IMG/VR virus record: IMGVR_UViG_2913167280_000003
Coordinates: 27,299-91,298 of that record
Source of the DNA: a virus
Lineage: Duplodnaviria > Heunggongvirae > Uroviricota > Caudoviricetes
Direction: 5' to 3' (one strand)
Length of the DNA stretch: 64,000 bases
The notes below the pieces were generated by a model, which saw nothing but the letters and a program-made list of their open reading frames with translations, was not told the origin of the DNA and ran no database searches. Shown one piece after another: positions 37,695 through 41,456 of this stretch (within the stretch, counting starts at the first letter, position 1; every line of letters begins with the position of its first letter). The position numbers and the translations under genes were made by a program.

Positions 37695-37766
37695 AGTCAG
37701 CCTGCCAGAAATAGATGATGGTGATTCTACTGCTAGTCATTTGTTGAATGTTTAACTCAATAAAAG

Positions 37767-37840: not shown

Positions 37841-38086
37841 TTGGCAGAACGTGTTGATGATGCAGAGCGGAGCATGAATCAGTTAGAAGCTCTCAAAGAC
37901 ATGGCCATCGATAACATCAGAAAGCAGGCACAGGTCGTGAGCCAGGTATTTACAGGGAAGTGTCGGTACTGCAATGAACCGATTGAATCCGGCATCTATT
38001 GTGACGCTGATTGTGCGCAATGGCACAGGGAAGAGCAGGCAGCAAAACAGCGTAAATATGGCATGCGACCGGCAGAGTTTGACTGA
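37841..38086 (+). CDS. TraR/DksA-family C4 zinc-finger protein (81 aa)
   Basis: C-terminal CRYCNEPI...CDADC four-Cys motif in small helical protein. Confidence 0.55.
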   Translation: MAERVDDAERSMNQLEALKDMAIDNIRKQAQVVSQVFTGKCRYCNEPIESGIYCDADCAQWHREEQAAKQRKYGMRPAEFD

Positions 38087-38088
38087 TT

Positions 38089-38667
38089 ATGTTGCGCTTT
38101 ACTGAGGAAGAGTTTCAGGCTTTTAGTGAACGTAGAAATAAGGGGTGGTCCAGGCCAAAAACCAAAAAGGATCCATTCTTATCGCTTGCACCGGCAAAAG
38201 AAGTTTCGCCACATGCGAAGGCGCTTGCAGCACTGGCAAAGAACCCAGACCTGCGCGACGGAAATTGCGAGCACTTCGAACAGGTTTTCATTTTTGATTA
38301 CTTCGAACGCAAGCACCCTGAAATCTATGAGTTGTTGCATGCAACGCCTAACGGAGGGAAACGTTCAAAAGCAACCGCCGGGAAAATGAAGGCTGAAGGG
38401 CAGAAAAAAGGTTATCCGGACATGAGTCTCGATAAAGCATGCGGTATTTATCACGGTATGCGAATTGAGCTTAAAGAACCAAATGGTAAAGCCCCGACGA
38501 AAGAGCAGATCGCCTGGATGTGCAGGCTTAGAGAGGAAGATTACTACGTCGTTCTTGCGTATGGTGCAGAACAAGCGATTACCGCCATCCTGGAATACAT
38601 AAGCCTTAAAAAGGGTGAGGCTATTGAGCATGTATTGAACGGCGATAAGTGGTTGTACGATGCGTAA
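38089..38667 (+). CDS. VRR-NUC-like nuclease domain protein (192 aa)
   Basis: Motifs KGYPDMSL...GMRIELKEPNGKAPTKEQIAWM typical of VRR-NUC fold (by memory). Confidence 0.5.
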   Translation: MLRFTEEEFQAFSERRNKGWSRPKTKKDPFLSLAPAKEVSPHAKALAALAKNPDLRDGNCEHFEQVFIFDYFERKHPEIYELLHATPNGGKRSKATAGKMKAEGQKKGYPDMSLDKACGIYHGMRIELKEPNGKAPTKEQIAWMCRLREEDYYVVLAYGAEQAITAILEYISLKKGEAIEHVLNGDKWLYDA

Positions 38668-38673
38668 AATAAT

Positions 38674-38690
38674 AAATTAATTAGTGCATT
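38674..38690 (-). promoter_or_regulatory. weak C1 operator-like site (AAATTAATTAGTGCATT on + strand)
   Basis: 14/17 match to reverse-complement consensus. Confidence 0.35.
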
Positions 38691-38863
38691 TATGCTCTTT
38701 GAGATAGCGAACATTAACATCGGGAGAATAATCGTGTCATCCAAGGTTAATTATGAATCGCTGGCATCGGTCATGCCGCGTAATGAACAGGAAGCAGATG
38801 CTGTAGTGGACCCGGTAATCGCTGAAATGAATGCTCGCCTGGAGGCTGAATTTGCAGCTGAGA

Positions 38864-39493
38864 ATGAACATACCACCCAGGGCGACTAGGACTGTTTTTT
38901 GTATCGGCAGCGGCCCATCACTCACTCGCGAGGACTGTGCTGCTATAGAAAAAACTGGCTGTTCAATCATCGCTGTTAACAATTCCTGGCAGATGTTCGA
39001 TGACATTTATGCCTTATACGCAGGTGATTTGTCATGGTGGAAGCAATACGGATCCACCATACCGGGAGGGAGATTCCGCAAAGTGACAGCCAACCTGGCG
39101 GCGGCGAAATCATTTTCGTTGGAGTACAGGCGATATTGTGGACCGGCGGAAGGGGTAAATAGCGGCGCGCAGGCTATCAGTCTGGCGGCTGAATCGGGGG
39201 CTGAAGTAGTTGTATTAGTCGGCTATGACTGTTCCCTGCAAAACGGCCTTCATTGGCATGGCGCGCACCCTCAAGCACTACGGAATCCAACGCAGGTGTC
39301 AATTTCAAAATGGCAACAGCAGTTCCTGGACACCCGCAAAAAACACGCAGATTTACATATTTTGAATGCAAGTAGGAGCAGTGCAATTCAATGTTTCCCA
39401 AGAATAAATTTAGAGGCAGTGATCGCGTTATTATCGTCGGCAGTGGCCCAAGCGCCGCAAACTTTGTTGCGCCGCGCGGAGTGCCGATTATAG
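38864..39493 (+). CDS. GSGPS-motif Rossmann-like protein, paralog 1 (start uncertain; DUF115/MAF-like guess)
   Basis: VFCIGSGPS...IIAVNNSW...NSGAQAISLAAESGAEVVVLVGYD parallels motifs of the next ORF. Confidence 0.45.
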   Translation: MNIPPRATRTVFCIGSGPSLTREDCAAIEKTGCSIIAVNNSWQMFDDIYALYAGDLSWWKQYGSTIPGGRFRKVTANLAAAKSFSLEYRRYCGPAEGVNSGAQAISLAAESGAEVVVLVGYDCSLQNGLHWHGAHPQALRNPTQVSISKWQQQFLDTRKKHADLHILNASRSSAIQCFPRINLEAVIALLSSAVAQAPQTLLRRAECRL

Positions 39494-40017
39494 CGGTCAA
39501 TGGGGCCATCGACTGGCTTAACCGCGCTTCTTATTTTTTCACCCTTGATCCATCACCAGACAATATGCGGCGTGTTGGTCGTGGGCGCCGTCGCCGTGGT
39601 GTTTGTTATTGCATGGCGCTTCCTGATGTTAAAGAACGTGAAGTCAGAGACGGCGTTCTGTGCTTCCGTCGTGTGGCTGAGCGCGGCACGGAGCCAAAAA
39701 ATACGAATTCTCCCGAGTGGTGGGCGTGGCGCTGGTCCGCACATTTCGGTCTTTGCGAAGATGTGAATGAAATTGCCAGCGGCAATAGTGCATATGGTGC
39801 TCTAAACCTGGCTTTCCATATCGGATTCAAACATGTCGCCCTGGTGGGCGTGGACGCTACACAAGAACCACGCGTTCATTCCGGCGGCACGCCAAAAAAT
39901 CTAAGTCACCTGCCTTTGTTATTCCAGTCAGCGCGTGAGCAGATTGACGTTGTTTCATGCGGGAAAATGGGAGGTATTCCGCAGATGACTCTTAAAGAAT
40001 GGCTGAAGAATACATGA
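39391..40017 (+). CDS. GSGPS-motif Rossmann-like protein, paralog 2 (208 aa)
   Basis: VIIVGSGPS...[10 protein letters not shown]...[26 protein letters not shown]; paralogous to preceding ORF. Confidence 0.5.
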
Positions 40018-40691
40018 TGGCACCCACAATTTATCACCGTATCGACGGTACCAAATACAGGAATGTCTGGGTTGTTGGTGATCTGCATGGTTGCTACACC
40101 AGACTGATGTCCGAACTCCATCGTGTGGATTTTGACCCTGCGCAGGATTTACTGATATCGGTCGGCGACCTTATCGATCGCGGCACCGAAAATGTGAAAT
40201 GCCTGGAGCTATTGCAGATGCCATGGTTCAGAGCGGTCATGGGCAACCATGAGCGGCTGATGATTGATGCGTTAAGCCCTGATGGCAATGTGAATAATTG
40301 GCTAATGAATGGCGGACAATGGTTCTTCATGCAGGACACCGATCAGGAAATATTAGCCAGGGCGCTGGTGGAGCTGGTAAGACGACTGCCCTATATCATT
40401 GAGTTGAACACCGGGCAAGAAACTATCGTTATAGCCCATGCCGACTATCCGGATAATGAATATCAATTCGGTAAGGAGGTGCCGCTTTTCAACGTTGTCT
40501 GGGCGCGCGAGCGTATCAGTGATTCGATGGATGATATTGGTGGCGAAATTTCGGGCGCAGATCGTTTTATCTTTGGTCACACTCCGGTGAAAAGCCCGAA
40601 GACATTCTGGAATCAGCATTATATCGACACTGGTGCCGTATTTTGCGGAAACCTTACATTGATGAAAGTGAAAGGTTATGGTGCAGCATGA
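39999..40691 (+). CDS. calcineurin-like Ser/Thr phosphatase (PP-lambda family, 230 aa)
   Basis: Metallophosphatase motifs VVGDLHG, GDLIDRG, GNHE. Confidence 0.7.
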
Positions 40692-41389
40692 AGATTGCTT
40701 TAGTTCTTCGCTCTGGAGGCGACTATAACGCTTCCGATGTGCAGTGGCTGGTTAATCAACTGCCAAAAGGCTATGAAATTATTTGCCTGACAGACCTGAA
40801 GCGTTTACATGTACCTGGCGTCAAAGTTGTCCCATTGATCAACCAGTGGCAAAAGTGCCGTGGCTGGTGGGCGAAAATCGAGTTGTTCCGACCTGATATA
40901 ACCGATGATCTGTTCTATCTGGATTTGGACACGGTTATTGCCGGTGATATACGCCCAATCCTTGAGAATCCACCAACCAGCTTCACCATGCTTAGGGATT
41001 TTTACCATCCACAATATCGTGGCAGCGGTGCCATGTGGATACCAAATAGTGTAAAAGCGCATATCTGGAGTGCATTCTGGCAAGATCCGGAAGGTTGGAT
41101 TGCTCGTTGTGTTACAACTGAGTGCTGGGGGGATCAGGGGTTCTTGCGAAAGGTTATGGGCGATGACACACCAGCATTTCAGGATCTGTATCCGGGATGG
41201 TTTGTAAGTTACAAGGCCGATGTTGTGGAACCTGGTTCGAAATATGCAAGCGCGCGTTACTCCAGGGGGAATGGGGCATTACCAAAGGACTGCCGAATAA
41301 TCTTTTTCCACGGCAAACCGCGACCTCGCGAAGTGTCAGAGGATTGGCTTCCACTCATTAGCGCGTTTTTTGAGCAAGAATCAGAATAA
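40688..41389 (+). CDS. DxD-motif glycosyltransferase-like protein (233 aa)
   Basis: ATGA overlap with phosphatase stop; [13 protein letters not shown]xD-type motif. Confidence 0.45.
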
Positions 41390-41390
41390 T

Positions 41391-41407
41391 ATTGCTCTAA
41401 TAATTCC
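41391..41407 (+). promoter_or_regulatory. C1 operator-like site (ATTGCTCTAATAATTCC)
   Basis: Consensus core seen directly after stop of gene 40688-41389. Confidence 0.7.
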
Positions 41408-41419
41408 ATATTTTTAAAA

Positions 41420-41448
41420 CGTGATGTACACTCATCACGTTTTTTATT
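41420..41448. terminator. hairpin CGTGATG-TACACTC-ATCACG flanked by A-run and T-run (bidirectional terminator-like)
   Basis: Seen directly between two oppositely oriented operator copies. Confidence 0.5.
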
Positions 41449-41456
41449 AGAGCAAT
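41440..41456 (-). promoter_or_regulatory. C1 operator-like site in inverted orientation (TTTTTATTAGAGCAAT on + strand)
   Basis: Reverse-complement consensus core. Confidence 0.65.

Follow-up and report, generated by a model that had tools for sequence, protein, structure and literature searches.

What do the genes do that P1 carries in a small cluster behind a C1 operator, flanked by its tail genes and pmgR/pmgS? The question is raised here by a viral DNA stretch of 64,000 nucleotides (nt), referred to as the window (positions 27,299 to 91,298 of IMG/VR record IMGVR_UViG_2913167280_000003, Caudoviricetes). A preliminary description of the window placed four consecutive same-strand genes at 38864-41389 and took them for a modification module, consisting of two tandem paralogs with a GSGPS motif, a lambda-type phosphatase and a glycosyltransferase-like protein with a DxD motif. 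The four genes are found there, all on the plus strand, and the motifs are present in the translations: FCIGSGPSL and IIVGSGPSA in the tandem pair, GDLHG, GDLIDRG and GNHE in the phosphatase, and YLDLDT in the last product. The analysis presented here points to a conserved unit of three genes for glycosyltransferase-type proteins, pmgO, pmgP and pmgQ (O-P-Q), with the phosphatase gene ppp as a separate passenger.

Comparison with the P1 genes at this position, which had been proposed as a check, matched the cluster to the P1 operon pmgN-pmgO-pmgP-ppp-pmgQ, in the same order; in the P7 record these genes are named hdmA, hdmB, hdmC, ppp and hdmD. A 3.1-kb stretch is 96.3-96.8% identical in DNA, over its whole length, to P1, P7, RCS47, SJ46 and further P1-like elements. 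Relative to P1 and P7, the cluster has a DNA identity of 96.6-96.8% and protein identities of 97-99.5%. Operators, gene order and lengths are all the same, and the window cluster differs from that of P1 and P7 by point differences only. All five genes are intact and equal in length to those of P1. The genes are already known and annotated, and their RefSeq and PHROG names already hint at glycosyltransferases. The labels “putative morphogenetic function”, in use for P1 since 2004, and “head morphogenesis” were guessed from gene position. Much of E. coli genetics relies on P1, and resistance genes are commonly carried by P1-like phage-plasmids.

Folds of PmgO, PmgP and PmgQ

A BLASTP alignment of PmgO with PmgP covers the N-terminal motif only (E 0.005). 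Comparison of the two families by hhalign, with 39 PmgO and 48 PmgP homologs as input, gave a probability of 97.8% and an E value of 8.9e-13 over 164 columns with 24% identity, which places the tandem proteins in one superfamily and not in unrelated families. By this profile comparison they are real and ancient paralogs. PmgP matches phrog_2111 (E 2e-131) and has 328 homolog clusters, with 600 representatives at E<=1e-3. The nucleotide-binding fold of PmgO and PmgP is that common to the Maf flagellin glycosyltransferases, the Campylobacter sialyltransferases CstI/II, and MptE and the thiamine pyrophosphokinases. Both proteins have the GxGPS loop and the Maf-like core fold, and 164 residues align with the 632-amino acid (aa) Maf chain. 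The Pfam MptE-like family PF01973 was below its gathering threshold for both (22.2 bits for PmgO and 20.4 for PmgP, cut-off 34.6); some of their homologs carry a precomputed match to it. A fold search of BFVD returned only unnamed or MptE-like phage proteins. Sequence searches of the PDB, with PmgO and PmgQ as single sequences and PmgP as a profile, were uninformative, the PmgP profile finding nothing.

PHROGs files PmgO under “alpha-2,3-sialyltransferase”, PmgP in an unnamed family and PmgQ under “glycosyltransferase”. E. coli K-12 is not known to make CMP-sialic acid (CMP, cytidine monophosphate), and the first of these names is thus too specific. It should be noted that database names in these families also travel: “norphogenetic protein”, which began as a typing error in the P1 record, has become the NCBI name for hundreds of homologs of PmgO and PmgP, and “phosphohydrolase”, given to some PmgQ homologs, was apparently taken from the adjoining ppp.

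The conserved residues of PmgQ are those expected of the GT8 family. An alignment of 69 sequences has six invariant columns, among them D79 and D81 in the LDLD motif; K63 is likewise invariant, and G148, D149 and H208 are conserved in at least 90% of the homologs. The DxD motif, K63, GDQG (G148-D149) and the C-terminal H208 (in FHGxPRP) align with the GT8 catalytic signature as found in Gat1 and GlyE. The fold is GT-A and the nearest structures are of GT8 type: the Skp1 alpha-galactosyltransferase Gat1 (structural match 16.8), glycogenin (16.7), GlyE (16.6), LgtC (16.4) and WbbM (15.3). A PmgQ family profile run against the sequences of known structures found 6mw5 (E 6e-7), GlyE (E 9e-5) and glycogenin (E 2e-4). 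No Pfam family was matched at E<=1, Glyco_transf_8 (PF01501) included. Thus PmgQ is GT8-like and not a listed member, since only the family profile reaches the GT8 structures. With its GT-A fold and a complete signature for the binding of metal and uridine diphosphate (UDP), it is a GT8-like enzyme and probably a retaining UDP-hexose glycosyltransferase.

The earlier suggestion of a glycosyltransferase-like DxD protein is borne out by the glycosyltransferase fold, and the guess of two DUF115/MAF proteins plus one GT-A protein agrees with the finding that three of the four genes encode glycosyltransferase-type proteins. The best structural matches of the trio are protein-glycosylating enzymes. 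No transmembrane segments were predicted in the cluster proteins.

The O-P-Q unit and the separable ppp gene

The three family profiles were applied to 20 independent loci, which were supplied by a scan of genome contigs; a scan of viral contigs with the PmgP alignment had as its best 80 matches only P1-like sequences of 99-100% identity. All three genes occur together in P1-like elements, in a lambdoid prophage of Citrobacter rodentium (equal to phage phiNP) and in prophages of Zhongshania, Brevundimonas and Sinomicrobium, the last a member of the Bacteroidota. Two members only are found in Methylophilaceae (P-Q), Microbulbifer (O-P, on a contig that is cut) and Buttiauxella (Q-P). The genes lie within a few kb of each other in the orders O-P-Q, O-Q-P, Q-P and P-Q. 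Isolated phages that have such genes are EP_H11/IME392 and the jumbo phages XacN1, CM1, RAS14 and Xoo-sp13. A reduced variant is found in D3, PAJU2, a Hafnia prophage and Klebsiella phage Eowyn, with a PmgO-like gene, a 275-296-aa protein of no known family and a methyltransferase.

The families are also found fused. A single 376-aa O-P protein (P0053), followed by Q, is encoded on a Logan contig, and an exhaustive profile search revealed P-Q fusions (P0301, P0367 and P0439) as well as Q-P fusions (P0352 and P0387). PmgO was modelled alone; when aligned to P0053 with MAFFT, the PmgO and PmgP families, being homologous, both fell on its C-terminal half. Fusions in both orders, together with an adjacency that is kept across phyla, argue for a shared function. 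There is thus strong evidence from gene order and fusion that O-P-Q represents a conserved functional unit.

Genes next to the unit are typical of glycan-building clusters. S-adenosylmethionine methyltransferases are neighbours in Zhongshania, Brevundimonas, PAJU2, Eowyn and the Hafnia prophage (the last by a precomputed Pfam listing). An FkbM methyltransferase is present in Sinomicrobium, a GT-B enzyme in EP_H11 and a Nucleotid_trans-like glycosyltransferase on the contig with the fused gene. CcrColossus has nucleoside diphosphate-sugar and GT9 transferases, with the PmgO/P/Q-type gene placed after two giant tail proteins.

The position of the genes is also recurrent. Glycosyltransferase genes lie within the structural block in Zhongshania, Methylophilaceae, Brevundimonas, D3, PAJU2 and CcrColossus relatives. 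The order in the Zhongshania prophage is TerL-portal-prohead protease-major capsid-[O-P-methyltransferase-Q]-head-tail connector-head completion-tail completion-tail tube. On the Methylophilaceae contig P-Q follows immediately after open reading frames (ORFs) that match the Zhongshania TerL, portal, protease and capsid genes. In Brevundimonas the module is flanked by the capsid gene and, farther downstream, by a 1611-aa ORF, and the PmgO homolog is found after the capsid gene in D3 and after the head-tail adaptor gene in PAJU2. The PmgO homologs of Pseudomonas phage PAJU2 (ORF010, L107:5974-6543) and Klebsiella jumbo phage Eowyn (L109:4998-5570) are annotated “structural protein”; the annotation has no traceable basis and was not used as evidence. 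Should it derive from virion protein data, the enzyme would be packaged or remain attached to its substrate.

One setting is not that of a phage. In five Pseudescherichia/Enterobacteriaceae genomes (L092-L096; e.g., L092:235-14419), O, P and Q are interleaved with adhesin-type genes, followed by a chromosomal MscS gene. The island encodes an 1173-aa inverse autotransporter (IAT_beta and seven Big_1 domains), three more Big_1 proteins, one of them with RCC1 repeats, and a 690-aa protein that belongs to no family. Autotransporter adhesins with a dedicated cytoplasmic glycosyltransferase encoded next to them are well established (AIDA-I/Aah, TibA/TibC and HMW1/HMW1C), and the island is a candidate adhesin-glycosylation locus.

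The phosphatase gene does not share these associations. By alignment, Ppp is orthologous to lambda protein phosphatase over its full length: residues 11-229 align with chain residues 3-221 of 1g5b (E 1.7e-93), and Pfam Metallophos (PF00149) is matched at 58.7 bits (cut-off 21.5). Assignment as a PrpA/PrpB equivalog was rejected, as the scores are below the curated cut-offs (NF008516, 276.7 vs 326 bits; NF007425, 236 vs 332); Ppp is a relative of these E. coli proteins and not an equivalog. Lambda NinI (PDB 1g5b) has in common with Ppp the full length and all metal-binding motifs, but ppp lies between pmgP and pmgQ and not in a nin region. The lambda gene is located in the nin region and is not known to have glycosyltransferase neighbours. 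Among P1-like genomes only some have ppp beside the trio. Cronobacter phage JK004 shows pmgL-M-N-O-P-Q-R-S synteny with ppp missing between P and Q, and phage D6 has ppp in a nin-like gene block without O, P or Q. None of the non-P1 loci with O/P/Q genes has a Ppp homolog within 8 kb.

Thus ppp is an independent passenger, separable from O-P-Q. The module of the preliminary description holds, as a unit, for O, P and Q, which co-occur and fuse, and not for the phosphatase, which JK004, D6 and the non-P1 loci place outside the unit. Confidence is high, for all of them jointly, in the gene identities and folds, in O-P-Q as a unit and in ppp being independent of it. New here are the recognition of the conserved and sometimes fused module, its frequent placement in head-tail gene blocks and, once, beside adhesins, and the exclusion of ppp.

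Proposed function and alternative readings

O-P-Q may constitute a module of three cytoplasmic glycosylation enzymes, with proteins as the probable target and an independent phosphatase beside it; the chances of this reading are put at about even. Three soluble cytoplasmic enzymes would jointly build a short glycan. PmgQ would transfer a hexose from a UDP-sugar, and PmgO and PmgP would add acidic keto-sugars from a CMP-sugar supplied by the host. In the relatives, extra glycosyltransferases and O-methyltransferases would extend or cap the glycan. The glycan-type neighbours and the gene positions (head-tail blocks and the adhesin island) suggest a soluble system that glycosylates proteins. The acceptor would most likely be protein, namely virion proteins in phages and immunoglobulin-like adhesins in the chromosomal island; that the acceptor is protein is given a little less than an even chance. 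Expression would set in once C1 repression is lifted, probably with a further contribution by read-through from the late promoter upstream, and the modification would be dispensable for plaque formation in the laboratory.

The donor is a more tentative matter. No sugar-synthesis gene accompanies any phage copy examined, and the hosts identified for homolog-bearing phages are all Gram-negative. For these reasons the most economical guess is CMP-Kdo (Kdo, 3-deoxy-D-manno-oct-2-ulosonic acid), which we infer to be the sole CMP-keto-sugar donor common to all Gram-negative hosts. As the actual donor, CMP-Kdo is nevertheless doubtful.

Several observations weigh against a protein-modifying role. In P1 itself the module does not adjoin the capsid gene and is under a C1 operator, and other copies lie between lysis and terminase genes or adjoin ribonucleotide reductase and DNA polymerase genes. 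The P1 virion proteome has only PmgC and PmgG among the Pmg proteins, and no PmgO, PmgP or PmgQ (PMC9024508). Of 29 single-gene deletions, 24 (all but those of pmgA/B/C/G/R) showed no defect in plaque formation or anti-restriction (PMC9024508), and CRISPR interference (CRISPRi) knock-down of pmgO, pmgP, ppp and pmgQ agrees with the deletions (PMC10695390). Glycan density is not mentioned for the P1 virion structures determined by cryo-electron microscopy at 3.2-3.7 Å (baseplate; connector at 3.5 Å) (PMC12810830), and the published P1 proteome makes no mention of glycans either. The restriction to Gram-negative hosts suits a lipopolysaccharide (LPS) acceptor equally as well as a CMP-Kdo donor. 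Finally, sequence similarity to WaaZ, the Kdo III transferase (TIGR04437/PF27901), is insignificant. WaaZ as an identification was rejected, since the score was 13.6 bits (cut-off 200) and the hhalign probability 16% for both families; the O-P fusion homolog has a match to PF27901 that is “faint” only. No functional study of pmgO, pmgP or pmgQ was found in the literature.

In a first alternative reading the trio would modify a glycolipid of the host envelope (the LPS core or some other lipid-linked glycan) while the phage grows lytically. A possible effect would be masking of the terminal glucose of the LPS core, which is the receptor for P1, and phage would then no longer adsorb to infected cells and debris. 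This reading is rather unlikely. The same WaaZ values are weak as support for it, and WaaJ reached only 36% in hhalign. Placement in head-tail blocks, where transcription is presumably late, would leave little time for remodelling of the outer membrane, and it is unlike that of the known seroconversion genes, which lie near int/att and are expressed in lysogens. In addition the non-phage copy flanks protein adhesins and not LPS genes. Lysogenic conversion was considered and set aside.

The arrangement of the cluster suggests another reading, in which all four genes, the phosphatase included, form one pathway; Ppp might, for example, dephosphorylate a sugar-phosphate or a phosphorylated acceptor before glycosylation. 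The genes are in a single operon between operators, and their frames run closely into one another, with 19 nt shared at pmgP/ppp and 4 nt (ATGA) at ppp/pmgQ; pmgO and pmgP share 103 nt. However the JK004 and D6 arrangements, the lack of Ppp homologs near the non-P1 loci and the full-length orthology with lambda phosphatase make such a pathway most improbable. It is very unlikely, too, that PmgO and PmgP are ATP-dependent pyrophosphokinases like MptE or thiamine pyrophosphokinase, in a module that acts on a small molecule or nucleotide (e.g., in counter-defence) or on DNA. Their fold, taken alone, is compatible with such an activity. PADLOC gave no defence or anti-defence signal; DNA, which the preliminary description had listed among the possible targets, found no support, and DNA modification was set aside.

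Glycosylation of proteins by O-P-Q can also be stated in a more specific form, which is improbable in its full detail: in P1 and many other Gram-negative phages, a hitherto unrecognised system of two small Maf-like enzymes and one GT8-like enzyme, often fused, would O-glycosylate virion proteins with CMP-Kdo and UDP-hexose from the host as donors, and Pseudescherichia would have recruited it for inverse-autotransporter adhesins. If the Kdo and virion reading were true, no Kdo-type protein glycosylation and no virion glycosylation in a classical coliphage would have been described before it. A vague positional annotation is in any case replaced by a testable idea, that Gram-negative phages glycosylate virions or other proteins as mycobacteriophages do. 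Such a modification would matter for how the immune system recognises therapeutic phages, for the masking of receptors and for the biology of adhesins.

Gene map, control sequences and known systems

The genes and control sequences of the cluster are listed in Table 1.

Table 1. Genes, operator-like sites and hairpin of the pmgN-pmgQ cluster (positions in the window)
Feature	Position	Strand	Description
C1 operator-like site (P1 Oppp / former Op83)	38674-38690	-	3 mismatches to operator consensus; upstream of operon
pmgN / hdmA	38692-38889	+	65 aa; small acidic protein; first gene of operon; phrog_2350 (function unknown)
pmgO / hdmB	38831-39493	+	220 aa; in-frame ATG also at 38864 (start in preliminary description); small Maf/CstI/MptE-fold protein, GSGPS motif; putative CMP-sugar-dependent glycosyltransferase
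pmgP / hdmC	39391-40017	+	208 aa; ancient pmgO paralog, best conserved of trio
ppp	39999-40691	+	230 aa; lambda-type Ser/Thr protein phosphatase (NinI-like)
pmgQ / hdmD	40688-41389	+	233 aa; ATG start per P1 annotation; GT-A fold, GT8-like
C1 operator-like site (P1 OpmgRa)	41391-41407	+	consensus match and P1 annotation
Hairpin between OpmgRa and OpmgRb	41416-41444		perfect 11-bp stem, 6-nt loop, flanking A and T runs; -13.4 kcal/mol, z -6.05
C1 operator-like site (P1 OpmgRb)	41440-41456	-	consensus match and P1 annotation

The cluster had been described as lying between a late operon and an operator pair. The pair downstream is present, but the cluster has in addition an operator of its own upstream, that named Oppp in P1. 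According to the P1 annotation Oppp overlaps a predicted sigma-70 promoter, PpmgN, and the cluster is thus expected to be silent in lysogens. LPS profiling of lysogens, which had been proposed as a check, would therefore be uninformative. In the whole window 14 C1-operator-like sites were observed, with 0.25 expected by chance; the others include two pairs, of which one, at 30013-30040, overlaps and the second is at 60627-60726. The hairpin listed in Table 1 is probably the operon terminator and looks bidirectional; a simple terminator scan overlooked it, as its T run belongs to the stem. The pmgQ frame is also open from an upstream TTG at 40643.

Upstream lie pmgL and pmgM, for which P1 has the late promoter LPpmgL; the window is 99% identical to P1 in that region. 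A terminator search from LPpmgL to pmgQ found no convincing one, and late read-through into the cluster appears possible on this basis. Position 37750 shows a single A-to-G change from P1 within the -10 hexamer annotated for LPpmgL, which shares this region with LP26 (LP26/LPpmgL); one other base differs in the 160-bp control region. The products of the pair (37841-38667) are a DksA-like zinc-finger protein, PmgL (phrog_54), and a VRR-NUC/Holliday-junction-resolvase-like nuclease, PmgM (PF08774, phrog_5702), and the label “putative morphogenetic function” is probably wrong for these too.

Homologs of pmgN were seen in P1-like loci only. The data on this gene conflict, in that CRISPRi knock-down lowered plating about 70-fold, yet deletion is reported to be harmless (PMC10695390). 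The guide is close to the Oppp operator and promoter and may have had polar or regulatory consequences for the operon. Farther downstream, the P1 acid phosphatase gene pap (43026-43620) is disrupted, lacking two internal stretches (58 and 12 bp) that P1 and P7 have. From about 43315 the likeness to P1 and P7 ends, and an AT-rich block follows (GC 0.29-0.33 at 43500-44750); the P1 Op88/pmgT region appears to have been replaced by foreign DNA.

Among known systems, the closest structural relatives are the Maf and GT8 enzymes. The Maf flagellin glycosyltransferases (Magnetospirillum Maf, PDB 5mu5) are proteins of about 600 aa with extra domains, whereas PmgO and PmgP have about 200 aa and no counterpart to the rest of Maf; they differ also in being a paralogous pair and in lacking accompanying nonulosonic-acid synthesis genes. 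Campylobacter Cst-I and Cst-II (CAZy GT42) are the source of the sialyltransferase label, but the sequence similarity is not clearly significant. PmgQ is shorter (233 aa) than the retaining GT8 enzymes glycogenin, Gat1, GlyE (which acts on the PsrP adhesin), LgtC and WaaJ/WaaO, and is 12-16% identical to them.

The closest functional precedent is virion glycosylation in mycobacteriophages. Freeman et al. in 2023 reportedly found that mycobacteriophage glycosyltransferase genes decorate capsid and tail-tube proteins. A similar account of mycobacteriophage virion glycosylation is given in a further article (PMC11256854). Common to both systems are phage glycosyltransferase clusters that adjoin structural genes and are dispensable for growth. 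The mycobacteriophage enzymes are of other families and serve in hosts of the Gram-positive type, and virion glycosylation has been demonstrated there, whereas for the P1 module it is a proposal.

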